Origin: Mixta intestinalis
GTDB lineage: Bacteria > Pseudomonadota > Gammaproteobacteria > Enterobacterales > Enterobacteriaceae
Direction of reading: 5' to 3'
Assembly (NCBI RefSeq): GCF_009914055.1
Contig: NZ_CP028271.1
Span: 3,614,402 to 3,654,401 of the forward strand
Length of the DNA: 40,000 bases
Shown here: positions 695 to 11,958 of the stretch, in pieces
Numbering within the stretch: the stretch's first letter is position 1
How the letters are laid out: every line of letters begins with the position of its first letter
The notes under the pieces: model-generated
What the model was told of the DNA's origin: nothing
Databases searched by the model: none
The model's input: only the letters and a program-made list of their open reading frames with translations
Program-made: the position numbers and the translations under genes

Positions 695-723
695 TTGACT
701 CCAGATTACCTTTGAGGTAATTT
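695..723 (+). promoter_or_regulatory. Sigma70-like promoter
   Basis: TTGACT (695-700), a 17-nt spacer, then TAATTT (718-723). Confidence 0.5.
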
Positions 724-778
724 TCAGCTACGCATGACTACAAAGCGTAGTCACCTCGGTACACCTAAGGGGGTTAAT

Positions 779-814
779 ATGAAAAGAGCATTTGACGAGT
801 TTGACGGCTTCTAA
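779..814 (+). CDS. 11-codon mini-ORF (MKRAFDEFDGF), a possible leader peptide or part of a small RNA
   Basis: Strong SD AAGGGGG (767-773) lies 5 nt before the ATG at 779. The stop is at 812-814, 20 nt before the terminator stem. It is too short to call as a gene on coding grounds. Confidence 0.25.
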   Translation: MKRAFDEFDGF

Positions 815-828
815 GCCGCACTAACCTC

Positions 829-847
829 TACGAGGCGGGGAAATTTA
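829..847. other. cos-like sequence, a candidate cohesive-end site
   Basis: CGAGGCGGGGAAA (831-843) matches 13 contiguous nt of the P2 19-nt cohesive end as I recall it (GGCGAGGCGGGGAAAGCAC). It sits between the converging portal and gpA genes, where cos is expected. Confidence 0.35.
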
Positions 848-860
848 CCCCGCCTTTTTT
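834..860 (+). terminator. Rho-independent terminator or attenuator
   Basis: Stem GGCGGGG (834-840) / CCCCGCC (848-854), a 7-nt loop, then T6 (855-860). Confidence 0.7.
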
Positions 861-864
861 ATGG

Positions 865-1377
865 ATGAAAAACATGACATTAGACGCCAACACCCTGCAA
901 ATCATAAGTAACGCTATTGTGCTACTCGGCGTTATCGTTGCCATCTGGACGATCGTCTACAACGTCCGTACCGCGAAGAAAACGCAAACCGCTAATTTTC
1001 TTTTCGAAAGCCGCCAGGATACGCAGTACATAGAGTCGCTACATGTCCTTAAGCAAGTGCATCGTTCAGGAAAATCTTTCCGCTCTTACGTCTTTCCATG
1101 CGACGGCAACAAGATCACCGAAGAGGAAATGATCGAACGCCGCAAGTTTCAGTACATCCTGAACTTTTACGAAAGGGTTGCCGTAAGTATCCGCGAAGGT
1201 ATTTATAACGAGCAGATGATCAAGCGGACGTCATACACCACCGTGATAGAAACCTACGATATTGCCGAACCCCTGATCAAAGCCATCAGGGAACACATCA
1301 AATCAGAGACCACCTATCAAGAGTTCGAATGGCTGGTGAAGCGGTGGAAAGCTAAACCGCTTAAGAAAAATAAATAA
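865..1377 (+). CDS. Membrane-anchored protein of unknown function, DUF4760-like. Candidate prophage cargo or exclusion gene.
   Basis: 170-aa ORF with one N-terminal hydrophobic helix (IISNAIVLLGVIVAIWTIVY) and a soluble helical domain containing LNFYERVAVSIREGIYNEQMI, which I recall as DUF4760-like. An alternative start at 874 has a weak GGATGA SD. The ORF is followed by a strong terminator. Confidence 0.75.
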   Translation: MKNMTLDANTLQIISNAIVLLGVIVAIWTIVYNVRTAKKTQTANFLFESRQDTQYIESLHVLKQVHRSGKSFRSYVFPCDGNKITEEEMIERRKFQYILNFYERVAVSIREGIYNEQMIKRTSYTTVIETYDIAEPLIKAIREHIKSETTYQEFEWLVKRWKAKPLKKNK

Positions 1378-1393
1378 CCATCGTCATTGAAGA

Positions 1394-1419
1394 AGCCGCC
1401 AGCCAGGCGGCTTTTTTTT
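1394..1419. terminator. Bidirectional intrinsic terminator shared by convergent genes
   Basis: Stem AGCCGCC (1394-1400) / GGCGGCT (1406-1412), then a T-run to 1419. The stop of the minus-strand methylase is at 1418-1420. Confidence 0.8.
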
Positions 1420-2116
1420 ACTGCCCTGCATCGACCTCGTTAAGCGCCACCATGATCGCCAGCCGTTCAGCAGGTGGAAGAGCTGCATATTTCGCGCGCC
1501 AGCGCTCAACCTTGCGCTTTATCCGGTGCCTGTCGTTGTAATCTTTTCCGGCAAACGCGTGGGAATACGCGCGTCCCTCTGGGTAATTCATCCAGATTTT
1601 TTCTGTTCGCACCCCGCCGCGCGTCATGGCCTGAAATTCTTTGCTGCGCCACCCCGCTAACGTTTCGTCATAAAGCTGCGACGGGTAGCCAGACAGGATA
1701 ACGCTGACATTTTCCGGTAGGCTCATAAGGCAGGCCAAAAGACGCTCATGATCGGCAACGGTATATTCATGACGGTAGCGGGCGCGACTGGTGCGCGTTT
1801 CAGGCAGATAGGGAGGATCGGAATAAACCAGCACGCGGCCATGTTGAGTAAAGTCTTCTCTTTCCAGAAAGCCTACCGCATCACCGTGATATAGATTCCA
1901 CCGAGGCGGCGTTTTCCCCATCTTTGACCAGCGATCCCGCGTTAATTTGAAAGCATTTTCATCCACATCAATTCCAATCGTCCTGGCTGCAAGCGGCTTG
2001 AAATACATCACCGCACCGCTGCCCAAGTGTGTTTCAATGTAGGTATCATGCGGGGGCATTTCAGCAATGATTTTCTGATAAACACCGCTACCGCCTTTAC
2101 TCCCTAAATAACTCAT
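1418..2116 (-). CDS. Orphan N6-adenine DNA methyltransferase (D12/Dam-class fold)
   Basis: YLGSKGG...IIAEMPPHDTYIETHLGSGAV (AdoMet-binding region) and SDPPYLP (catalytic DPPY). I chose the start at the ATG at 2116 (MSYLGSK), which has GAGG 8 nt upstream. The longer ORF to 2218 lacks an SD. Confidence 0.85.
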   Translation of the reverse strand: MSYLGSKGGSGVYQKIIAEMPPHDTYIETHLGSGAVMYFKPLAARTIGIDVDENAFKLTRDRWSKMGKTPPRWNLYHGDAVGFLEREDFTQHGRVLVYSDPPYLPETRTSRARYRHEYTVADHERLLACLMSLPENVSVILSGYPSQLYDETLAGWRSKEFQAMTRGGVRTEKIWMNYPEGRAYSHAFAGKDYNDRHRIKRKVERWRAKYAALPPAERLAIMVALNEVDAGQ

Positions 2117-2303
2117 CCGTAAAACCTCACGTTGCAGCTGCACTGCTAAAAATGACTGTGCTCGATGTGTATGGCCAACATTGCCAAATCTGACAGTGCG
2201 GTACCCAATGAGCGCCACTTAGTGGCGCTAGCGGACTCTTTGCCGCCCGCGCCCGCAGAATCGCCACTCCCCGCGCAACAAGTTGCGCAGGTCATAACGA
2301 TTG

Positions 2304-2489
2304 TCACCAAACCCATTGGATCAGCACCTCAAATAGCGCCTCACCAACGGCCCGAACACAGATCCAGGCGAATAAAGTCACCGCTGCCGCAATCCATGCC
2401 GCCCGGCGCTTTGCTGGTACGTTTGTCCGCATCCAGTCATAGGCCGAAACCGCCAGCAAAAAGCCGATAACATCCAGAATCGTTTTCAT
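2304..2489 (-). CDS. Small two-helix membrane protein (61 aa)
   Basis: MKTILDVIGFLLAVSAYDW...AAWIAAAVTLFAWICV. SD AGAGAGGAAAAATG. It starts 10 nt after the gpA stop. Confidence 0.6.
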   Translation of the reverse strand: MKTILDVIGFLLAVSAYDWMRTNVPAKRRAAWIAAAVTLFAWICVRAVGEALFEVLIQWVW

Positions 2490-2499
2490 TTTTCCTCTC

Positions 2500-5190
2500 T
2501 TACCCCTCGTTATCTTCTGACTTAACCGCTGCTTTCCATCGGTCAACCAGCTCACCAACCTTGTGTTTGGATATGGATTTACGCCACGGCTGATCGGTAC
2601 CGGCGATAATCAACTCACCTGTAACCGGATGCGCGCGATACACGGTATCGAGTACCGTCACTTCATTACCGCGCGCCAGTTGAATGGCCTGCGGTTTACT
2701 GATCTGTACCTTCTTAACCTGCGCCCATGACTGAACCAGCCCAGCCAGACCAGCAATTGCCGGTGATAAAACTTGCTCTTGCTGCCTGATCGCATGGGCT
2801 GCTTTGAGGTAACTTTCCGCCCGCTGGGTGTCATATTCGGAACAGTCGCCGCTGGTAATGCTGCGCGCCAGCTCCTCAAACTCATCAGCAGGCGATTTCT
2901 GCCGCCTCGGTTTGTGGTTATGAAGGCTTTCACGTACCTGTTTTCGCTGTTCCTGGGTCAACTTACCGATCTCAAACTGTTCCGGCCCTTCCCGCTCAGC
3001 TGGCACTGTCATTAATGACGGTGATCCGGGCGGTGAATTTGTTCGTTTTTTGACCTCAGTACAGTTATTGACACGAGTCCTAGAGGGCGCGGACGCGCCC
3101 CGAAGGTCAAAATCAAAGTCAACGGCCTGCCCGGAGTCGTCCAGAATCTCCGGTTTCTTACGCACGATGCGGTAGGAATGCAGACGGGTTTCAATCGGTG
3201 GCAGGAAGGTGTGGGGCATCACCAGCCCTTTGATAAGGTTCTGATACTCGCCGTGGTCGTTTGGTTGGTCTTTCTGTTGATACCAGATGCGAAGCGGTAA
3301 CTTACGCCGGGCAACCAACGCCCCGCCCTGCAATTGGGTATATTGCTGCCAGTCGCCAGCATCCGCTGCGCGGTGCAGCTCAGCAAACAGCGGGTTTATC
3401 TTGTCGGCCTGCTCCTGATTGCGGAACCGGCGCAGCTCACGCCAGACAGATACCGGCGCACCGCCCAAAAACTGAAACTGACGGATGCCCCAGCACGATG
3501 CCCAGGCGGTAGCGTGTTTTGATGTTTCTTTCAGCGGCCTGCCGCTCTCGTCGTCGGTTTCACCGTCGAGCGCGTAGCCGTCAATATTCTTACTGATGTA
3601 CTTCACCACGTAACCGGTGGCGCTGCCGATTTCCTGATCGATCGGCTTCATATCAAAACGAGGCTGATTGCCGTGCTTACCCTGTAACTCTTCCGCATCC
3701 TCGCGGGTGGCATAGTCTTCCATCACTTCCAGCAGTTCGGCGGAATGTTCCGGCAGGGAGAACAGCAGGCCGTGCCAGTGCGGCGTACCATCGTGGTGAG
3801 ACTCAGCCACCCGCAAACCAAAGACCGGAATTTCACGGCGGGCCAGCTCAGCGCGGATCTGTTGCCATACCCGATTAAGATAACGCTGCGTGGTTCTTGG
3901 GCTGGCACCATTCCATTTGGCATTACGATGACCGAATACGGTATATGCGTGGTATTTGGATGGTGCTGTCAGAGTAAAAAATTGGCCCGCGTAGCCGCTT
4001 TCGGTGGCAACTTTCTCAAAGCCGCCGATACGGGTCATAAGTTCAACGCGGCGCAATGCCGGGTTAGATATGCTCTTATCGATCTGCTCAATAAGCGAAA
4101 TACGCTCTTTGGTGTCCTGGTCTTCCAGCTCAAGACGGGCCATGATCGCGCGGCTGCGCTTGCGTCTGGCATCCCACTCATCAACGTGGTGCTTACTGCA
4201 ATACGGCGCAGCACCTCGCTTTACATCACCAAAGGCAATATGCAGGTGCTCACGCCAGCGCGCGGCGTACTTTTTCAGGTTACGGTGCCAGTAGCGATCA
4301 TCCAGCATTTTGCTAATGCCAGTAGTTGCCTCATCAATAAACAGCGCACCCCGGCAATACTTTGCCCAGCTCGGAGGCGTCAGGAAGAAAAGCCGCGCGA
4401 GGATAGCCGCTTCGGTGTAAAGGTATCCGGCATATTTCCTATCACTCTGAGTCTCTACCGTTTCGTGAACTTCACTCAGCACAGACCGCATATAGATAGC
4501 GATATCCTGCGCCAGCAGCTCAACATCTTCCGGCGTGAAGTCCGGCAGGTGGTTAAAGCGCTCAACCAATCCATGCAGAGTGTTAAACGTGTGGTAAAGC
4601 GGGTTTAACCCTTTGAATGCTGTATCAGCCTGAGATTTAGCCTCATCGGTCATCGCAATAGCGTATTGCTCATTCACCATGTTGATAGGTGGCAGATCCC
4701 TGCGGATGATATCGCGCAGCGCCAAACGGGCTATGTGCCTGCCCTTCATGGTGTGAATGCTATCAATGCGGGAAGCCAGACGCAGGCGAATAAAGCGAGG
4801 TAGCGGCGCAAGGGTGACTTTCACCCACGCCAAAAACTCCTGTTCTTGACCCAGCTCGACTAGATCAACAACGGGAGTTTTATCAACACAAATAGCGGGA
4901 TGGGGCTTGCTCCAATCGCAGCAATCAACCGCGCTTTGGTAGTCTAAAGTGACTTTATCCCCAGCCCTTACTGCATTGGCTTCGCATTCTGAATAACGCA
5001 CCAAATAAGTTGGTGCAGCGCCTGCTTTTCCGACCAGCTCAACGCCGATTAGCCACGACTGCCCAACCTTTTTTTTATTCAGTACACGCCGAATCACAAA
5101 GCATGATGATTTCCGGGCGGCGTCTGGCGCGCTACCCGGAAACGCAGGGGGATATGAAGGTGAGCAGCGCCCACTTGCTGCGGTGGTCAT
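2500..5190 (-). CDS. Replication initiation endonuclease, P2 gpA family (rolling-circle nickase)
   Basis: APSKYH, ESHHDGTPHWHGLLF (HUH-type metal motif), YVVKYISKNIDGYALDG (active-site Tyr pair) and RPLKETSKHATAWAS. The N-terminus ASGRCSPSYPPAF resembles the P2 A N-terminus. ATGA overlap with the upstream gene. At 896 aa it is longer than P2 A as I recall it. Confidence 0.92.
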   Translation of the reverse strand: MTTAASGRCSPSYPPAFPGSAPDAARKSSCFVIRRVLNKKKVGQSWLIGVELVGKAGAAPTYLVRYSECEANAVRAGDKVTLDYQSAVDCCDWSKPHPAICVDKTPVVDLVELGQEQEFLAWVKVTLAPLPRFIRLRLASRIDSIHTMKGRHIARLALRDIIRRDLPPINMVNEQYAIAMTDEAKSQADTAFKGLNPLYHTFNTLHGLVERFNHLPDFTPEDVELLAQDIAIYMRSVLSEVHETVETQSDRKYAGYLYTEAAILARLFFLTPPSWAKYCRGALFIDEATTGISKMLDDRYWHRNLKKYAARWREHLHIAFGDVKRGAAPYCSKHHVDEWDARRKRSRAIMARLELEDQDTKERISLIEQIDKSISNPALRRVELMTRIGGFEKVATESGYAGQFFTLTAPSKYHAYTVFGHRNAKWNGASPRTTQRYLNRVWQQIRAELARREIPVFGLRVAESHHDGTPHWHGLLFSLPEHSAELLEVMEDYATREDAEELQGKHGNQPRFDMKPIDQEIGSATGYVVKYISKNIDGYALDGETDDESGRPLKETSKHATAWASCWGIRQFQFLGGAPVSVWRELRRFRNQEQADKINPLFAELHRAADAGDWQQYTQLQGGALVARRKLPLRIWYQQKDQPNDHGEYQNLIKGLVMPHTFLPPIETRLHSYRIVRKKPEILDDSGQAVDFDFDLRGASAPSRTRVNNCTEVKKRTNSPPGSPSLMTVPAEREGPEQFEIGKLTQEQRKQVRESLHNHKPRRQKSPADEFEELARSITSGDCSEYDTQRAESYLKAAHAIRQQEQVLSPAIAGLAGLVQSWAQVKKVQISKPQAIQLARGNEVTVLDTVYRAHPVTGELIIAGTDQPWRKSISKHKVGELVDRWKAAVKSEDNEG

Positions 5191-6192
5191 CGAGCACTAT
5201 CCAGATATGCAGCTATGAACGCTTCCGCGACCGGCGCAACGATGGCATTACCGTAGGCGCGCAACTGGCCCACTCTTCCGGCAACCCCATCAACCAGCGG
5301 CTTAAGTCCGGGTTTAACTGGCCTCCACTTTCCATCCCGGCAGAAAACCCAGTCAGAACCTGCCCAGAATCCACCAACCGCATTGGTGAGGCCATCCGTG
5401 CCGCACCGCCCAGAGTTGTGCCCCTCGATGGGTGGTTTGCCGCCGCCCCCCATCCCTGCAACCTGATTGTTGCCTATCGTTGTCGGTGTAGGCCAGCCCG
5501 CTAATTGTGCTGTCACATCCAACCGATCCGTTGACAGTTTCCCGTTGCGAATCCTGCCACCCAGATAACCGCCCTTCCCGTCCGTCGCTGTTGGTGTCGG
5601 CCACCCGGCTAATACAACTGCCGTTTGCAAATTCAATCCGCCCTTCCTCCCCGCATTCGACGGGTGTTTCCATGAATTGGCTGTCGGCGTCGGCCACCCA
5701 GAAGAGGCGCTGTCTGATGTGCGGGGCACCGAAGCCCGCAGCGCAGAGATCGAAACCTGCAAAGGCGTAAGCCGCGTTTTCCAGCTTAGCTTGTACATCG
5801 TCGAGCCAATCAAGGCCGTCTTTGCTCGCAACCTGTTCGCCAAAGATAGCGTTAGGCTGGCACTCCGAAATAAGACGAAACCATGCGGGGAAAAGGTGGC
5901 GTTTATCGCTTTTTCCTTTTTTTGATCCACAGACACTGAAAGGCTGGCATGGGCATGAGCCTGTCCAAACTGGTCGATCATCGGGCCATCCTGCCCGGCG
6001 CAAGGCGTAAGACCAGACGCCGATACCGGCAAAGAAGTGGCATTGTGTGAATCCTTTAAGGTCATTTGCGGTTACTTCCTCAATAGAACGAGTGTCAACG
6101 ACGCCGGGGGCAATATGTCCCGCGTCGATCAGGTTGCGCAGCCACTGCGCAGCGAAGGGATCGATCTCGTTGTAATAAGCCGTCACAATCAC
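5187..6192 (-). pseudogene. C5-cytosine DNA methyltransferase split across two reading frames. This could be a frameshift, a sequencing error, or a naturally two-part enzyme.
   Basis: The frame starting at GTG 6192 carries FAGIGV (motif I), SCPCQPFS (motif IV), FGEQV (motif VI-like) and APHIRQRLFWVA (motif VIII). The +1 frame carries 3x GWPTPT, FWAGSDWVFCRDGKWRPV and YGNAIV (motif X), ending at 5187. Both frames stay open over about 5353-6065. Confidence 0.8.
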
Positions 6193-7079
6193 GCCCCCTC
6201 AGCACACTGCCCGCAGCTCTCACAGTTCCCGCAACCACCTGCCGGGCATCCTTCAACGATGCCCAAAGTGCCGATCACCTCTTTGGCCTTCTGGCGGTTG
6301 CTGGCGTCAGTGCTAACGGAGCGTTGCACATCGATTTCATGCAGGCGGAAGCGGTGGTAAATCTCGCGGGTGGTTTCGGTGTCGCTATTGGAAATGACAA
6401 CCGGCGCGCCATATTTGCGGTTCACTTCCAGCAACTCCGCCGCTAACTGGCGGTGGTTCTTCTCGGTGAATGGCTCGGTGTGGTATTGGGTGAAATTGGC
6501 GGTTTCGCTGGCAGGCAGGTACGGCGGATCGCAGTAGATGGCTTCATCCGTTCCAACCATCACTTTGAGGGTGTTTTGAAACGAGCTGCACAGAAAAATA
6601 GCTTTGGTGTCGTTGGCCTTCTCAGCAAACTGGCGGATCTCCGCCTCCGGGAAGTAAGGCGCGCTTTTGTGCTGACCAAACGGCACGTTATAACCGCCGC
6701 TCTGGTTGTAACGCACCACGCCGTTGTAGCCGTGGCGGTTGAGGTAGAGAAACAGGGCCGCGCGGGCCACATCAAGCAAACCTTTTGTACCGTTGAAAAT
6801 GCGGCGATTCTGTAAATATTCCTCTTTGGAATTGCCGGTCGCAAAGAGCGGGCGCGCAAGATCAATCACCAGCTCAGGATTGCTTTTGACCTCACGATAA
6901 AGGCGGATCAGATCTGGGTTGATATCCGCAAGGATGTAGCGGCGATAATCGGTATTGAGGAAAACGGAAGCGCCGCCAACAAAAGGCTCAACGAGGCAAC
7001 CAGCCTTTGGTAAATGCGGGAGTAATTCAGGCATCACGCGGCTTTTGCCACCTGGCCATTTGAGGAGGGAACGGATCAT
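6189..7079 (-). CDS. dam: DNA adenine methyltransferase, close Dam (GATC-type) homologue with a Cys-rich C-terminal tail
   Basis: LKWPGGK, CLVEPFVGGASVFLNTDYRRYILADIN, LYLNRHGYNGVVRYN and YCDPPYLP are near-collinear with E. coli Dam as I recall it. GTGA overlap with the downstream gene and ATGA overlap with the upstream gene. Confidence 0.9.
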   Translation of the reverse strand: MIRSLLKWPGGKSRVMPELLPHLPKAGCLVEPFVGGASVFLNTDYRRYILADINPDLIRLYREVKSNPELVIDLARPLFATGNSKEEYLQNRRIFNGTKGLLDVARAALFLYLNRHGYNGVVRYNQSGGYNVPFGQHKSAPYFPEAEIRQFAEKANDTKAIFLCSSFQNTLKVMVGTDEAIYCDPPYLPASETANFTQYHTEPFTEKNHRQLAAELLEVNRKYGAPVVISNSDTETTREIYHRFRLHEIDVQRSVSTDASNRQKAKEVIGTLGIVEGCPAGGCGNCESCGQCAEGA

Positions 7080-8195: not shown

Positions 8196-8378
8196 TTACT
8201 CGTCGCCCTGCCGCTCTTTGGCTGGCTTAATCGCAGGCCATACCAGAACAACGAGCGCCCCCACGAAGAACAGATCGCCAACTGCTGAGAGCAGATAACT
8301 GGTGAAGTCCACAGCTACCACCATGAAAGCCAGCAGCAGAACCAACGCAGGCCGCAACATGCTCAGCATCTGGCTCAT
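8196..8378 (-). CDS. Small membrane protein (60 aa)
   Basis: Two hydrophobic helices (ALVLLLAFMVVAVDF, LFFVGALVVLVWPAI). ATGA overlap with the TerB gene stop. Confidence 0.6.
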   Translation of the reverse strand: MSQMLSMLRPALVLLLAFMVVAVDFTSYLLSAVGDLFFVGALVVLVWPAIKPAKERQGDE

Positions 8379-8809
8379 CAGATGTAATCCTCAACGCGCA
8401 GACCCAGAAGACGCCCAACCTCTTCCAGCACCTTCTGCTCTTCCGGCTCGATCTCGCCGTCAGCTTCGGCAATGGTCAGCATGTTGACGAAGACCTCCTC
8501 CGCCTCTTTCGGGTCGTTTTTGATATCTTCGATTTCACGCAGGATATTCATGCGACCAATGCGAAAACCTGCCTCAAGCTGTTCAGTGAAGCGGGTGATC
8601 AGCGAGGTGATTTCGTTGCCGTAATGACTCAGGCGGGGATTAGAGCGCAGCAGCTGATCGAGCTTTGCGGTTTCCTCTTTTTCAATTTCACCATCAGCAG
8701 CAGCAACCAGCAGACAGCCACCGACAATGGCCTCCATCAGATCGCGGTTTTCAACTTTCTTTAATTCAACTTTTACAGCAGCGGTTTTTTTCTTGAACAT
8801 GCCAAACAT
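8378..8809 (-). CDS. TerB-family (tellurite-resistance TerB-like) protein
   Basis: Duplicated acidic helical motif AAADGEIEKEE ... AEADGEIEPEE, typical of the TerB fold. SD AGGGG lies upstream. Confidence 0.7.
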   Translation of the reverse strand: MFGMFKKKTAAVKVELKKVENRDLMEAIVGGCLLVAAADGEIEKEETAKLDQLLRSNPRLSHYGNEITSLITRFTEQLEAGFRIGRMNILREIEDIKNDPKEAEEVFVNMLTIAEADGEIEPEEQKVLEEVGRLLGLRVEDYI

Positions 8810-9513: not shown

Positions 9514-9795
9514 TTACAAACCAATCCATAGCAGCCAGGCATCACGTTGCTCTTTCGGGCGGTTGAAATAGGCGTCGCGCATCGCGCGGTTGAATTCTGG
9601 AATGTAGATCCAGTTCTCTGAACGACCTGTCAATGCCTCTGGGTTCTTCTTCTGAACTACTGGCAGCTTGCCATCACGAACCATGTCACCCACTGCGTTG
9701 GCGGTTTTACCAATCATTTCAGCAAATTTTGGGGTAGGCACTGCATCTACCGGGTGGCGCAATTCGATGTAGCCCTCTGGGTATTTGTCTTTCAT
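9514..9795 (-). CDS. cox: Cox-like regulator/excisionase (P2 Cox family)
   Basis: FAEMIGKTANAVGDMVRDGKLPV, WIYIPEFN and the C-terminal RPKEQRDAWLLWIGL parallel P2 Cox. It is divergent from the C repressor. Confidence 0.85.
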   Translation of the reverse strand: MKDKYPEGYIELRHPVDAVPTPKFAEMIGKTANAVGDMVRDGKLPVVQKKNPEALTGRSENWIYIPEFNRAMRDAYFNRPKEQRDAWLLWIGL

Positions 9796-9836
9796 GTGTA
9801 ATAATCCTCTTCAATGTTCAGCCGCCTCTAGCTGGC

Positions 9837-9854
9837 TGTAGCCGCTTCTGGCGG
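9837..9854. repeat. 18-nt element TGTAGCCGCTTCTGGCGG, copy 1, in the cox/C switch region
   Basis: Identical to 11308-11325. It contains a short GCCGC/GCGGC hairpin. Confidence 0.8.
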
Positions 9855-9871
9855 CTGTTCATTTGGCTCAG

Positions 9872-9892
9872 GAAGTTCCACATACGAACTTC
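9872..9892. promoter_or_regulatory. Inverted repeat GAAGTTC-N7-GAACTTC in the switch region, a candidate operator
   Basis: Perfect 7-bp arms lie 32 nt upstream of the C repressor ATG. Confidence 0.35.
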
Positions 9893-9923
9893 TTGGTTGT
9901 GAATCTAGTTCGAAAACGGAACC

Positions 9924-10223
9924 ATGTCAATGACCTTTGAAGAGAAACTAAAGCTAATTCGTAGCGCCGAAGGGCTGAATCAGTCACAGCTATCTGATAT
10001 CTCAGGGATCCCATTAAGCACCCTCAAAAAGATAGAGGCCGGGTATCAAGACCCCGGCTGGAATGTTCTTAGCAAGATCACTGAACACCCCCGATTTCAG
10101 AAATACACACTTTGGCTAATGACTGGAACTACCGCACCACAGGCCGGGCAAATAGCCCCGACTCTCTCCCCTGATGGGCAAGGGAGAACAACATCACGCC
10201 AATCAAGGCCGAAGGCTGGCTAA
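9924..10223 (+). CDS. Immunity repressor, P2 C family (HTH)
   Basis: LNQSQLSDISGIPLSTLKKIE (HTH) and PRFQKYTLWLMTG...QAGQIAPTL match the P2 C tail QFTKYTLWFMT...SGQIAPAL. Confidence 0.88.
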   Translation: MSMTFEEKLKLIRSAEGLNQSQLSDISGIPLSTLKKIEAGYQDPGWNVLSKITEHPRFQKYTLWLMTGTTAPQAGQIAPTLSPDGQGRTTSRQSRPKAG

Positions 10224-10289
10224 AAATCTGGTTTTTCTTTGCGCTAGAACAATCAGCGCAAAATGACAATTGCACTGGAGGGCTTCGCT

Positions 10290-11270
10290 ATGTCGATTAA
10301 GAAGCTCGAAGGTGGTCAATACGAAGTAGACGTTTACCCGCGTGGGCGTAATGGAAAACGCATCCGCAGGCGGTTCGATAAGAAACAAGAAGCTGTACTT
10401 TTTGAGCGTTATGTATTGGTAAACGCCGACAAAAAAGAATGGCTGGGGGCAAGCGTAGATCGCCGCACTTTAAGCGAGTTATTAGAGGCTTGGTGGTTGC
10501 TGTACGGGCAGACGCTGGAAAATGGCGAAATAGAGAAACGGCACCTGAACAAAACGATCAGGGCGCTGGGAGATCCAGCCGTTAACCGTTTGAGCAAACG
10601 CACAATAGCGCAGCACCGCAGCCAGCGCCTGGATGATGGGATCAGCGCGGCAACGATAAATCGTGATATATACCGACTTTCTGGCATGTTCAGCGCACTG
10701 ATCAAACTGGAAGAATTCAGGAAGGAAAACCCCTGCAAGGGGCTGGAACCACTGAAAGAAACACCGCCAGCAATGACCTATCTCACGAAGTCAGAGATCA
10801 GCAAACTGCTGGAAACCTTATCCGGTGACGATCGGCGCGTAGCGTTGGTATGCCTTAGCACTGGCGCACGTTGGGGCGAAGGCAGTGCCCTGCGAGGTGA
10901 GCAGGTTAACCATGGGCGCGTGACGTTCCTTAAAACCAAAAATGGGAAAAAGCGAACGGTTCCAATATCGGCAGAGCTGGAGGAAGAGATCAAGACCAGT
11001 GACACCGGGCCATTGTTCAAAGTTGATTATGAAAACTTCTGCGAACAGCTCAGGCAGGTTAAACCAGACTTGCCACGCGGGCAGGCTACGCATGTGCTTC
11101 GGCACACGTTCGCGAGCTGGTTCATGATGAACGGCGGCAACATTATCGCGTTACAGCAGATTCTGGGTCATGCGAGCATACAACAAACGATGGTTTATGC
11201 TCATCTTGCCCCTGATTACCTAAAGCACGCGGTAACGTTAAACCCGCTTGGTGGAGGGTTGGCAATTTGA
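10290..11270 (+). CDS. int: Tyrosine integrase, P2 Int family
   Basis: MSIKKLEGGQYEVDVYPRGRNGKRIRRRFDKK is near-identical to the P2 Int N-terminus. Also LSTGARWGE, HVLRHTFASWF and LGHASIQQTMVYAHL (R..HxxR..Y catalytic set). The longest ORF starts at 10263. Confidence 0.93.
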   Translation: MSIKKLEGGQYEVDVYPRGRNGKRIRRRFDKKQEAVLFERYVLVNADKKEWLGASVDRRTLSELLEAWWLLYGQTLENGEIEKRHLNKTIRALGDPAVNRLSKRTIAQHRSQRLDDGISAATINRDIYRLSGMFSALIKLEEFRKENPCKGLEPLKETPPAMTYLTKSEISKLLETLSGDDRRVALVCLSTGARWGEGSALRGEQVNHGRVTFLKTKNGKKRTVPISAELEEEIKTSDTGPLFKVDYENFCEQLRQVKPDLPRGQATHVLRHTFASWFMMNGGNIIALQQILGHASIQQTMVYAHLAPDYLKHAVTLNPLGGGLAI

Positions 11271-11371: not shown

Positions 11372-11398
11372 AAAAAAAACCCCCTCATCATGAGGGGG
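11372..11398 (-). terminator. cpxP rho-independent terminator
   Basis: On the minus strand, CCCCCTCAT / ATGAGGGGG hairpin (11380-11398) followed by T8 (11372-11379). Confidence 0.85.
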
Positions 11399-11442
11399 AA
11401 GACAGGGATGGTGTCTATGGCAAGGAAAACAGGGATACTATG

Positions 11443-11958
11443 TTACTGGTTACTGCCGGTACTACTCGCTTCATGCAGCAAGGGAACCCGCTGCTGATTC
11501 GTCAGCCTGCGCAACTCGTTCATACGTTGCTCATGCCGTGTTTGTAAAACAGCCTGCTGCTGCGGCGTTAGCAGGTGATACATCTGGTTGCGGATGCGGG
11601 ACATTTCGACCTGCCGCATAACCTGTTCCTGTGCTAACTTTTCTGCCTGCGCCCTGACGGCTGCTTCATTAAATTCATCTGCAATGATTAAATTATGCAG
11701 GTTTTCAATGTCATTAACGTTTACGAGCGGACGCGCATATTGCGTTTGCTGCATCAGATCTCGCATCTGCTGACGCTGCTGCTCCGAAAGCTTGATGCCA
11801 TCGAACATATGGCTTTGCAGATTTTGCGCTATGCTGCCAAACATCGCTTCGCCTGGCTGTTGCATTACGCTGACCGTTGTAACATCTGCCGCCCATGCGC
11901 TGGAGTAACTTAAAACCACCGAGGCTGAAGCTAAAACGGCGGCGGTCACTTTGCGCAT
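11443..11958 (-). CDS. cpxP: Periplasmic Cpx pathway inhibitor/chaperone CpxP
   Basis: Signal peptide ending AWA, two LTxxQ-type motifs (LSEQQRQQM, LTPQQQAVL), divergent from cpxRA. Confidence 0.9.
   Translation of the reverse strand: MRKVTAAVLASASVVLSYSSAWAADVTTVSVMQQPGEAMFGSIAQNLQSHMFDGIKLSEQQRQQMRDLMQQTQYARPLVNVNDIENLHNLIIADEFNEAAVRAQAEKLAQEQVMRQVEMSRIRNQMYHLLTPQQQAVLQTRHEQRMNELRRLTNQQRVPLLHEASSTGSNQ

Follow-up and report, generated by a model that had tools for sequence, protein, structure and literature searches.

The interval between the portal gene and the replication gene of P2-like phages, the gpQ/cos-gpA site, was defined as a defence hotspot by Rousset et al. 2022 (PMC9122126). 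In P2 it holds the cargo genes old and tin; the same study reports that the hotspot also carries partition systems and non-defence toxins and lists 'DUF4760 + StbA + Plasmid_stab_B' for it in Table S5, the DUF4760 gene being absent from the systems tested there. The locus described here shares with the old/tin cargo its portal/cos-gpA position and its hypervariability, with IetAS and RmrTA in sister phages, but Old, Tin and the validated systems of Rousset et al. bear no sequence relation to DUF4760, and the present cassette has a peptide-and-terminator leader of its own. DUF4760 at the P2 slot is therefore already catalogued, and the new result is the leader upstream of it, at positions 695-862.

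The window (the whole stretch of DNA that was analysed, 40 kb) holds the following features.

1-279, + strand: P2-type portal gene (gpQ), 3' end, bounding the hotspot on the left (Pfam Phage_portal)
695-723, + strand: promoter-like region read from the sequence, with -35 TTGACT at 695-700, a 17-nt spacer and -10 TAATTT at 718-723
705-721, + strand: perfect palindrome ATTACC-TTTGA-GGTAAT in the sequence of the promoter-like region
735-753, + strand: 5' leader hairpin UGACUAC-AAAGC-GUAGUCA, predicted in both the MFE fold and the centroid fold
767-814, + strand: strong Shine-Dalgarno (SD) sequence AAGGGGG (767-773) and 11-codon micro-ORF (779-814), MKRAFDEFDGF-stop, conserved with DUF4760
805-818, + strand: hairpin CGGCU-UCUA-AGCCG with the micro-ORF stop codon in its loop (RNAalifold)
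821-829, + strand: conserved box CUAACCUCU, a candidate anti-SD complementary to the micro-ORF SD region (alignment)
832-862, + strand: intrinsic terminator GAGGCGGGG-AAAUUUA-CCCCGCCUU followed by a U run (terminator scan)
865-1377, + strand: DUF4760 protein (Pfam and PHROG matches, homologues, AlphaFold, hydropathy)
1389-1417, either strand: bidirectional terminator of the DUF4760 cassette and the gpA-side operon (folds on both strands)
1418-2116, - strand: divergent methyltransferase of the D12/Dam-like N6-adenine type, an orphan that closes the gpA operon (family matches, DPPY)
2304-2489, - strand: 61-aa hydrophobic ORF directly downstream of gpA (no family match)
2500-5190, - strand: replication endonuclease gpA, right border of the hotspot (Phage_GPA, E=8.3e-100)

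A first-pass annotation of this DNA had placed three cargo genes (DUF4760, methylase and 61-aa ORF) between a portal C-terminus at 1-279 and gpA at 2500-5190, and all of these are present. It had treated DUF4760 as a single gene, a view that needs revision in light of the micro-ORF, terminator and operator-bearing promoter upstream, which it missed.

Its expectation that the slot would be hypervariable is borne out. Portal C-termini 76-97% identical occur in 80 IMG/VR P2-like contigs, and among 76 P2-like contigs chosen solely by a portal C-terminus 76-97% identical to that of the window, the slot ranges from 1.4 to 5.5 kb and contains DUF4760 in seven. Like other cargo of this hotspot, DUF4760 lies between portal and gpA; related P2-like contigs carry toxin-antitoxin-like genes there in addition to IetAS and RmrTA, in many gene arrangements. 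DUF4760 does not belong among the core proteins, nor is it a structural or lysis protein.

The assignment of the 865-1377 product to DUF4760 is correct (Pfam profile search, 123.6 bits where the cut-off is 25, E=8.7e-36). Residues 17-161 align with positions 2-141 of the 141 in the PF15956 profile, PHROG 2284 matches at E=5e-69, and PF15956 is the precomputed assignment of all but one of 110 homologues. The protein has the size and architecture of the family (about 150-190 aa, an N-terminal hydrophobic helix and a helical domain). It is 170 aa long from ATG 865 and 167 aa from ATG 874; since homologues are mostly 165-175 aa and commonly 167 aa, the start codon may be ATG 874. The single N-terminal transmembrane helix and helical domain proposed earlier are matched by one hydrophobic segment (residues 8-37, by hydropathy) and an all-helical AlphaFold fold (pLDDT 91.1; helices 5-48, 50-65, 83-107, 113-142 and 149-160). 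The helical domain, of about 135 aa, probably sits at the cytoplasmic face of the inner membrane, and five Arg/Lys residues (R47, R70, R101, K117, R139) are invariant in homologues.

The first-pass annotation could not link this protein to a named defence family, and this holds, although a DUF4760 arrangement for this hotspot stands in Table S5 of Rousset et al. 2022. PADLOC-DB v2 profiles gave nothing significant, the sole match being PDC-S35 (E=0.0054) over 70 residues. We found no functional description of DUF4760 in the literature searched and no solved structure related to the protein by sequence; a viral structure library returned one anonymous match only. The best and only recurrent PDB matches to the model are to the EP domain of plant EDS1/PAD4/SAG101, which rank 1, 2, 7, 15, 16, 23 and 26 among the Foldseek PDB matches and are not significant (E 0.3-3, probability at most 0.98, TM 0.53-0.58 over 140-155 columns, identity 9-13%; helical bundles match easily). 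A TIR partner is absent.

The leader begins with the promoter-like region, at which a consensus promoter scan made no call. The palindrome within it is the sole perfect match in the window. Across DUF4760 leaders it is perfect or one base off in 20 of 49 distinct sequences, lying 70-92 nt upstream of the micro-ORF with conserved half-sites and a variable spacer, a pattern matched by fewer than 1% of background windows. The record of phage epsilon15 has sites with identical half-sites and spacing, labelled 'repressor' in its annotation. The repressor of the resident prophage was considered as the factor acting on this operator and rejected, its immunity region (9795-9924) containing no ATTACC-N5-GGTAAT. 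At the position of the 735-753 hairpin, other DUF4760 loci have, by eye, a hairpin of other sequence.

Two structures, the stop-codon hairpin and the terminator, are the only ones that RNAalifold predicts on the leaders. In the former, 89.9% of cells are paired and three of five pairs change on both sides, against at most 59% paired for slid controls; in the latter, 96.6% of cells are paired across 30 leaders. With hairpin and terminator scored together as one structure, the observed covariation was reached by none of 500 shuffles. The terminator is strong (dG -17.6 kcal/mol, z=-4.1) and ends 3-12 nt upstream of the DUF4760 start. Rfam yielded no family for the leader at E<=1. The box CUAACCUCU pairs with GGGGGUUA in the fold with a ribosome modelled on codons 6-10, and by eye the box is altered in three divergent leaders (L070, L065, L012) yet complementary to their own initiation regions. 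A classical antiterminator is rejected because the terminator is predicted to persist in constrained folds with the ribosome at each of eight positions. We also discarded a gene-60-like translational bypass from the last micro-ORF codon into DUF4760, as the frame relation of U-tract and start differs among loci and one of them (L004) has an in-frame TGA between the two; the appeal of a bypass had lain in the stop codon held in a hairpin, a gap of about 45 nt and the U-tract as a possible landing site.

The leader travels with the gene. It accompanies DUF4760 in 69 of 73 loci and is retained in homologues down to 38% identity and in four remote cluster representatives. The pair is found in P2-like slots, in one lambda-like tail region, in the immunity region of a prophage and between chromosomal genes at no fewer than six different sites, and such single-gene insertions at many chromosomal sites suggest that the DUF4760 gene is mobile. 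The window contains the motif [DE][DE][FYW][DE][GW][FLIVCM]-stop a single time. In control loci totalling 910 kb there are seven occurrences, and these mark precisely the seven loci with DUF4760. Conservation is confined to the C-terminal six residues of the micro-ORF, the N-terminus varying in length and sequence; within the hexapeptide codons, third positions vary at six of six and first positions at two of six, a pattern which, read at the level of codons, shows selection acting on the peptide.

Among 5426 complete E. coli genomes, 292 (about 5%) have a version of the cassette, ST131 and O157 strains among them. This version has a DUF4760 protein 87% identical to that of the window and a leader micro-ORF reading MKKMYDEFDGF, in the same orientation and also as first gene after cos. 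In both genomes whose annotation was inspected, it occupies a P88-like prophage slot. It differs from the window in that its operator palindrome is degenerate and that a 280-aa Csx27-like membrane protein and ParM/ParR follow DUF4760, whereas in the window the methylase does.

We read positions 695-1417 as a self-contained, horizontally mobile cassette of two parts, inserted next to cos, a peptide-gated DUF4760 phage-exclusion module of the abortive-infection or toxin-antidote type, and give this reading a probability of about 0.4. Transcription would start at the promoter with the epsilon15-type operator palindrome and give an RNA with the 5' hairpin, a strongly translatable 11-codon micro-ORF with its stop codon in the conserved hairpin, and then the strong intrinsic terminator. 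Most transcripts would be short RNAs of about 130 nt with the micropeptide as sole product, and DUF4760 synthesis would depend on read-through and on a ribosome-binding site that is weak; much peptide and very little DUF4760 would therefore be expected in the cell. DUF4760 would be a harmful membrane effector restrained by the micropeptide, either through read-through control in cis or, slightly more likely, because the peptide, acting as an antidote with a short lifetime, binds its helical domain. The balance between peptide and DUF4760 would then be upset when a phage infects or the element is lost. The case for a role in defence or abortive infection is one of context: a terminator that limits expression, a mobile gene and a place in the hotspot.

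Short peptides act through helical receptors in the Rap-Phr and AimR-AimP pairs, and type II toxin-antitoxin systems are toxin-antidote modules. The cassette resembles these in placing a peptide with six conserved residues beside an all-helical protein, in its predicted peptide excess, and in being mobile and in a defence context. Unlike Rap-Phr and AimR-AimP, its micropeptide has no signal sequence, and the putative receptor is membrane-anchored and matches TPR receptors neither in sequence nor, at a significant level, in fold. To our knowledge, an antidote of 8-11 aa is without precedent. One locus (L008) has a mutated micro-ORF stop that adds four residues while DUF4760 is intact, which is awkward if a free C-terminal Phe is essential for neutralisation. 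Column S105 of the protein (to T/N) tracks a Gly-to-Trp change at peptide position -2, but because just two independent lineages support this, it is not counted as evidence.

The conservation of the peptide is equally explained by ribosome arrest in cis, and the alternative that weighs most heavily against the peptide-gated module is a leader-peptide attenuator, which we consider a serious contender, if a somewhat less likely one. Here the DEFDGF chain would stall the ribosome at the stop or close to it and set read-through or DUF4760 initiation in answer to some signal, translational or metabolic. The peptide, once released, would have no function, and DUF4760 might or might not serve defence. 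The attenuators trpL, pheL and tnaC have the same layout, a short ORF with a strong SD and an intrinsic terminator just before the gene, and arrest peptides likewise combine a conserved C-terminus, here of six residues, with a variable N-terminus. The covarying hairpin holds the stop codon, and the anti-SD box could close the initiation region of the micro-ORF itself. In several stand-alone copies of the micro-ORF the hairpin begins 0-6 nt past the stop, so that a ribosome paused there would block it, but in DUF4760 leaders it begins 17-18 nt past the stop, outside the ribosome footprint. Neither the constrained folds nor RNAalifold show a mutually exclusive antiterminator, the leader has no regulatory codon run, and the conserved C-terminal hexapeptide and the occurrence of the ORF as a terminal cistron elsewhere set it further apart from trpL, pheL and tnaC. 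The substitutions found in the peptide (Gly to Trp at -2; Phe, Leu, Ile, Val or Cys at -1) are large changes for an interaction with a conserved ribosome.

The terminal cistron is that of epsilon15, where the micro-ORF overlaps the gp50 stop (ATGA) and converges on terL and so cannot be a leader, there being nothing downstream to regulate. This arrangement and the predicted persistence of the terminator are evidence for the peptide as a product in its own right. Stand-alone DEFDGF-stop micro-ORFs occur in many unrelated phages, among them epsilon15-like, P88-like and T4-like ones, in the last adjoining primase and SbcD-like genes. A speculative extension, to which we give low odds, is that micropeptides of the DEFDGF type (8-14 aa, with [DE][DE]x[DE][GW] and then one hydrophobic residue as their C-terminus) are unrecognised, widespread phage effectors with DUF4760 proteins as their membrane receptors. 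If so, the cassette peptide would be the short-lived antidote of a DUF4760 abortive-infection effector, and stand-alone copies would either disarm DUF4760 as antidote mimics or act on a host hub whose ligands are acidic C-terminal tails, the SSB tip being one example of such a tail; the ATTACC-N5-GGTAAT operator would link the cassette to an epsilon15-like regulatory circuit. The RB69 polymerase clamp-binding tail, which we presume to resemble the micropeptide, is not used as evidence here. The C-terminal hexapeptide of bacterial SSB, DDDIPF, is a protein-interaction tip (PMC5872125); like DEFDGF it has six residues, is acidic and ends in Phe with a free carboxylate, but only two of six positions are identical, Asp-Gly stands in place of Ile-Pro, and the likeness is one of resemblance only.

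A literature search for the peptide strings returned nothing relevant. The stand-alone micropeptide gene, present in temperate and virulent enterobacterial phages alike, is missed by genome annotation, and its copies point either to peptide-level interaction of phages with hosts or with one another, or to a regulatory device that is new and portable; we found neither in the literature searched. Few uncharacterised cargo genes in the P2 defence hotspot are as common as DUF4760 itself. With the micro-ORF and terminator, what was an anonymous 'hypothetical membrane protein' becomes a module of two parts that can be put to the test, and the leader explains why cloning the DUF4760 ORF alone could mislead.

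It is also conceivable, at rather long odds, that DUF4760 is a non-defence accessory (moron) gene, a membrane-associated stress or housekeeping factor of benefit to the host or a lytic-cycle function of the phage, at a site that merely tolerates insertions. The partition systems and non-defence toxins of the hotspot (Rousset et al. 2022) would fit, as would a very large family (at least 2000 clusters at 50% identity) that is often chromosomal and matches no defence model. However, defence or addiction genes typically show such a patchy, mobile, single-gene spread with a promoter and a terminator of their own, the tight transcriptional block suggests a harmful product, and the occurrence of the gene in E. 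coli (about 5% of genomes, both of those inspected having it in a P88-like prophage slot) also counts against this reading.

Constitutive superinfection exclusion of the Sie/Imm type, in which a low-level inner-membrane protein blocks incoming DNA and the leader merely limits the dose, seems to us improbable to a still greater degree. The protein is small and membrane-anchored, and its gene comes directly after cos, where P2 has its exclusion genes, which invites this reading; homologues stand at moron positions elsewhere, between lambda-like tail genes (L019) and beside a CI-like repressor (L283). Yet neither Pfam nor PHROGs shows a likeness to Sie, Imm or Cor, the bulk of the protein is cytoplasmic by the positive-inside rule, many copies are chromosomal single genes outside any prophage, and the elaborate conserved micro-ORF would be left unexplained.

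The two remaining genes of the slot are read from the other strand. As had been described, DUF4760 and the methylase converge on a bidirectional terminator; the hairpin at 1389-1417 has a dG of -18.7 kcal/mol on the + strand, followed by U8, and of -16.5 on the - strand, with a weaker U-rich tail. The D12-class call for the methylase is upheld by a narrow pass (PF02086, 24.4 bits against a cut-off of 22), together with PADLOC MTase_II (2.9e-25), PHROG 'DNA methyltransferase' (1.6e-35), two GSG motifs (residues 9 and 32) and a DPPY motif (residue 100); because it scores under the NCBIfam Dam cut-off, we regard it as a divergent member. Among the other ORFs between portal and gpA, including its neighbours DUF4760 and the 61-aa ORF, none has a nuclease-family match in Pfam, PADLOC or PHROGs, in keeping with the earlier statement that the methylase has no partner nuclease and at variance with a restriction-modification pair.

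That the three genes form one cargo unit, as first proposed, is not borne out. A single system in which the methylase protects self DNA and DUF4760 and the 61-aa peptide are effectors, as in restriction-modification or BREX, is hardly credible: the genes are adjacent, DUF4760 and methylase co-occur above expectation (5/7 versus 16/69, Fisher p=0.015, in portal-selected loci and uncorrected for shared ancestry) and their pair is seen again beside divergent gpA genes, but in the same portal-selected loci the methylase occupies 21 of 76 slots, 16 of these without DUF4760, and DUF4760 twice lacks the methylase, as it also does in E. coli, in Kluyvera, in Xenorhabdus and at every chromosomal locus, the convergent genes are terminated separately, and the 61-aa ORF tracks gpA type. 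A three-gene system is thus rejected because methylase and DUF4760 largely assort independently; the methylase and the 61-aa ORF belong to the phage gpA operon, with functions separate from the DUF4760 cassette.

The 61-aa ORF has no family match in Pfam, PADLOC, PHROGs or NCBIfam. Of the two membrane helices once ascribed to it, only the one at residues 30-57 passes a standard hydropathy threshold, and the N-terminal stretch 3-17 is shorter, so that a second helix is plausible only. It has a good SD and starts 10 nt past the gpA stop. Copies (100% and 93% identical) occur only in two contigs (L091 and L097) that share its gpA type at 97% identity and have no DUF4760; by this distribution, the ORF is backbone-linked and effectively a gpA-operon gene, not variable cargo.

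The DUF4760 gene of this prophage lies in the old/tin position of P2, between portal and replication gene A (gpA), behind a compact leader that combines a promoter and operator-like palindrome with a micro-ORF and an intrinsic terminator. This conserved unit, together with micro-ORFs ending in DEFDGF that are scattered over unrelated phages, is what the present analysis adds. Both appear undescribed in the literature searched, where no paper mentioning DEFDGF-type peptides was found and the sole paper naming DUF4760 was unrelated to its function.

Features of the slot and its surroundings (window coordinates)
1-279: 3' end of the P2-type portal gene
Portal 3' end to 170-aa ORF: cos-proximal non-coding stretch
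695-700 (+): promoter-like -35, TTGACT
705-721: perfect palindrome ATTACC-TTTGA-GGTAAT, flanked by -35 and -10
718-723 (+): promoter-like -10, TAATTT
735-753 (+): 5' hairpin
767-773 (+): strong Shine-Dalgarno (SD) sequence, AAGGGGG
779-814 (+): 11-codon micro-ORF, MKRAFDEFDGF
805-818 (+): small hairpin CGGCU-UCUA-AGCCG, stop codon in loop
821-829 (+): box CUAACCUCU, complementary to the micro-ORF SD region
832-862 (+): intrinsic terminator, dG -17.6 kcal/mol, z = -4.1
865-1377 (+): DUF4760 protein, 170 aa
1389-1417: strong bidirectional terminator
1418-2116 (-): divergent D12/Dam-like adenine methylase, 232 aa
2304-2489 (-): 61-aa ORF
2500-5190 (-): gpA
10263-11270: integrase

The remainder of the prophage comprises further methylases, early genes, a repressor and the integrase, and extends to about 11.3 kb, with chromosomal genes beyond.

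The first-pass annotation had called the 170-aa product DUF4760-like, with one N-terminal membrane helix and a helical domain, and both points hold. The Pfam match spans the entire profile (E = 8.7e-36), PHROG 2284 is matched at E = 5e-69, and a single hydrophobic segment (residues 8-37) is followed by Arg/Lys residues. Under the established positive-inside rule, the C-terminal domain would lie in the cytoplasm. In an AlphaFold model (32-sequence alignment; pLDDT 91.1, pTM 0.78) an extended helix over residues 5-48 comes first and four more follow; R47, R70, R101, K117 and R139 are invariant in the helical domain. In a Foldseek comparison the best resemblance was to plant EDS1/PAD4/SAG101, in their EP domain; it is suggestive only and non-significant (E about 0.3, with probabilities reaching 0.98 and a TM score near 0.55). 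Because close homologues (n = 110) are mostly 165-175 aa and commonly 167 aa, ATG 874 is suggested as the start.

Variability of the slot among related P2-like prophages, also proposed at first pass, is borne out by 80 IMG/VR contigs whose only selection criterion was similarity to the C-terminal 92 portal residues (76-97% identity). In the 76 that reach far enough beyond the portal to be informative, the portal-gpA distance is 1.4-5.5 kb; DUF4760 occupies seven slots, and others carry IetA/IetS (E = 8e-78 and 2e-41), RmrT/RmrA (E = 8e-92 and 5e-204) or, judged by eye, HicAB/HigBA-type toxin-antitoxin-like pairs and a KAP NTPase-like gene. The hotspot reading is therefore correct, and DUF4760 counts as candidate defence cargo. 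Exactly this locus was defined as a defence hotspot by Rousset et al. 2022 (PMC9122126), whose table of tested systems does not include DUF4760. The placement is already catalogued for E. coli: of 5426 complete genomes, 292 have a match over 80% or more of the gene's length, and in the P88-like prophage (two E. coli genomes inspected, and phage Shae_phiSM) DUF4760 is the first gene past portal/cos. As at first pass, it could be linked to no named defence family; PADLOC has no DUF4760 model, and PDC-S35 (E = 0.005) is the best match there. Next downstream of DUF4760 in P88-like prophages of E. coli lies a 280-aa hypothetical protein (L025:6526-7365 in an ST131 prophage) that weakly matches Csx27 (E = 1e-5); its ORF overlaps that of DUF4760 in an O157 strain. 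Csx27 is a membrane protein that accompanies type VI-B CRISPR systems.

What does not survive is the grouping of DUF4760, the methylase and the 61-aa ORF as one cargo unit. The methylase gene, which does share the bidirectional terminator with DUF4760, clears the Pfam cut-off only narrowly; by its GSG and DPPY motifs and PADLOC MTase_II match (2.9e-25) the product is classed as a divergent D12/Dam-like adenine methylase, and it lacks a partner nuclease, as had been stated, with no nuclease-family match among the other ORFs of the slot. It occurs (above about 59% identity) in 21 of the 76 slots, 16 of them without DUF4760, and is absent beside DUF4760 in E. coli, Kluyvera, Xenorhabdus and every chromosomal copy; co-occurrence of the two is above chance at Fisher p = 0.015, uncorrected for shared ancestry. 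The 61-aa ORF was found among the 76 contigs only in L091 and L097, which have the window's gpA type (97% identity) and no DUF4760, and it starts 10 nt past the gpA stop, so it is effectively a gpA-operon gene rather than swappable cargo. The prophage holds three methylase genes in all, the other two being a Dam gene at 6189-7079 and, at 5187-6192 (-), two overlapping ORFs that resemble a single C5-cytosine methyltransferase gene broken by a frameshift, with a PCQPFS motif and weak dcm match in the N-terminal part and a C-terminal part ending GNAIVAPVAEAF.

A scan of one genome per species gave 24 DUF4760 loci, only four or five of which sit in the P2 slot. The rest are either chromosomal single-gene insertions between unrelated genes, at sites that, from reading neighbour proteins, include nrdAB-yfaE/glpT, downstream of astE, by cysG and near guaA, or lie in other prophages, with a Photorhabdus copy in a lambda-like tail region and a Morganella copy in a baseplate region. 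Siphophages of Pseudomonas, Acinetobacter and Alteromonas carry remote homologues, which are also seen next to a CI-like repressor. Since an exhaustive profile search also returned at least 2000 clusters at 50% identity, nearly all stand-alone proteins of 150-200 aa, DUF4760 is a widespread, mobile, single-domain family.

Alignment of the regions upstream of DUF4760 loci revealed the leader, without which DUF4760 never travels. A micro-ORF ending [DE][DE][FYW][DE][GW][FLIVCM]-stop is present in 69 of the 73 loci with enough upstream sequence. The exceptions are L008, in which the stop is mutated to a sense codon; L023, with DUF4760 reduced to a 3' fragment; L051 (~4950), where foreign DNA, apparently an insertion sequence, in the terminator loop parts promoter and micro-ORF from an intact DUF4760; and L029, an Acinetobacter phage protein whose N-terminus differs. 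The 40-kb window has a single instance of the motif; a 910 kb control (six frames) has seven, exactly at the seven DUF4760-bearing loci. When the 28 different forms of the last six codons are compared, third positions vary in six of six and first positions in two of six, so selection evidently acts on the peptide rather than the DNA; all three stop codons are in use. In the stop-codon hairpin, C-to-U changes that leave the encoded Asp and Gly unaltered are offset by G-to-A past the stop: 89.9% of cells are paired (slid controls, at most 59%), three of five pairs have changed on both sides, and the covariation score of the whole scored structure was reached by none of 500 shuffles. Four remote family representatives fetched at random each have SD, micro-ORF and terminator (peptide ends DENDGF, DEHDDL, EEYDGL and DGDDGN), and in a Pseudomonas phage leader the peptide ends EEYEGI; DUF4760 and its micropeptide gene are therefore an old pair, found family-wide.

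The terminator U-run finishes 3 nt upstream of ATG 865. A conserved AUGGAUGAA follows it (861-876, same place in other loci) and in many loci starts a 4-6-codon ORF (MDEK/R...). Its stop codon and the start of DUF4760 overlap (ATGA, TAATG or TGATG), an arrangement suggestive of translational coupling; the window's version of the ORF is out of frame and extends over 16 codons.

The palindrome has the half-sites and spacing of sites that the epsilon15 record labels 'repressor' (TTACC-AAAAC-GGTAA and ATTACC-TAAAA-GGTAAT; L278 4712-4727 and 1792-1808). It is perfect or one base off, with variable spacer, in 20 of 49 distinct DUF4760 leaders, chromosomal ones included, and in under 1% of background windows; ATTACC-N5-GGTAAT was not found in the resident prophage's immunity region.

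The micro-ORF also occurs by itself. Scanning IMG/VR for back-translated DEFDGF-stop gave at least 121 matches in at least 120 stretches. At least 116 of the 121 matches listed lie in ORFs of up to 40 codons; among these, at least 16 precede a DUF4760 gene and at least 91 have none downstream despite at least 500 nt available. The listed matches represent at least 40 distinct contexts (45 are near-identical copies from one context), the majority of peptides being plain M-x-DEFDGF, and at least 29 contexts are without DUF4760 (loci L157-L275 among others). These stand-alone micro-ORFs appear mostly missed by existing annotation. Tandem forms exist (MKDEFEWCDEFDGF, MLDEFEGFDEFDGF), of types DEFEGF-DEFDGF and DEFEW[CS]-DEFDGF.

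Epsilon15/phiV10-like phages have two copies. MHDEFDGF (TL-2011b, L276 ~3555-3581) sits past the early operon, with a terminator hairpin beginning 5 nt after its stop, then two ATTACC-N5-GGTAAT-type sites and terS. MKDEFDGF (epsilon15, L278:2555-2581) overlaps the stop of gp50 (Pfam Phage_gp49_66) as ATGA and is followed by a terminator common with convergent terL, so it would have nothing downstream to regulate. The two bracket the terminase operon, and a perfect palindrome GTGACATGTCAC lies directly before MHDEFDGF (L276 ~3530-3545) or after MKDEFDGF (L278 ~2585-2600). Further copies lie upstream of an SbcD-like gene in T4-like Enterobacter phage PG7 (L190:10723) and of the primase gene in T4-like Morganella phage MP1 (L274). 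On the hotspot's gpA side, P88-like phages carry MKKKRMNDEFDGF (L176:1474), then a hairpin, then an orphan protein of 174 aa (MKKYEYMLMKE...; L176 ~1516-2040, with 17 more loci alike) that matches neither Pfam nor PHROGs, a layout parallel to that of DUF4760.

We consider a peptide-gated membrane effector acting in phage exclusion the leading explanation, at a probability of about 0.4. Most transcripts would end at the leader terminator, so that the cell would produce a surplus of micropeptide, with DUF4760 arising only from read-through; such a tight limit on expression suggests that DUF4760 is harmful in quantity. Within this reading we slightly favour a trans-acting antidote, which may bind the helical domain and its invariant basic residues. 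Such binding would explain why the two genes are so strictly linked and why motif and protein have drifted in parallel, and a trans-acting product would account for the stand-alone copies and their terminal-cistron arrangement, although L008, with its mutated stop, is awkward. The micropeptide also resembles the acidic C-terminal interaction tail of SSB (tip DDDIPF; PMC5872125), a lead rather than a result. A pure cis attenuator, with an arrest peptide and unassigned output, would fit the attenuator-like layout but is rated somewhat less likely: no antiterminator was found, the terminator is predicted to form with the ribosome at any position, the hairpin in DUF4760 leaders begins 17-18 nt beyond the stop, outside the ribosome footprint, and the epsilon15 copy terminates a transcription unit. 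Sie-type exclusion and a non-defence moron carry smaller weight than either. The finding as a whole has a modest chance of leading to something new in kind, either a micropeptide-based system of antidote and counter-defence or a portable regulatory device.

Elsewhere in the window, Rfam Hrs1 (Hfq-regulated sRNA 1) is matched at 11372-11445 (+) with 69 bits, above its gathering score of 56.4, between the integrase end and a 171-aa ORF, taken as cpxP-like, near the likely attachment site. In the prophage, a 143-aa early-region protein (8378-8809, -) has weak similarity to a DjlA/TerB-like N-terminal domain (E = 9e-6), which is unusual cargo within a P2-like early operon.
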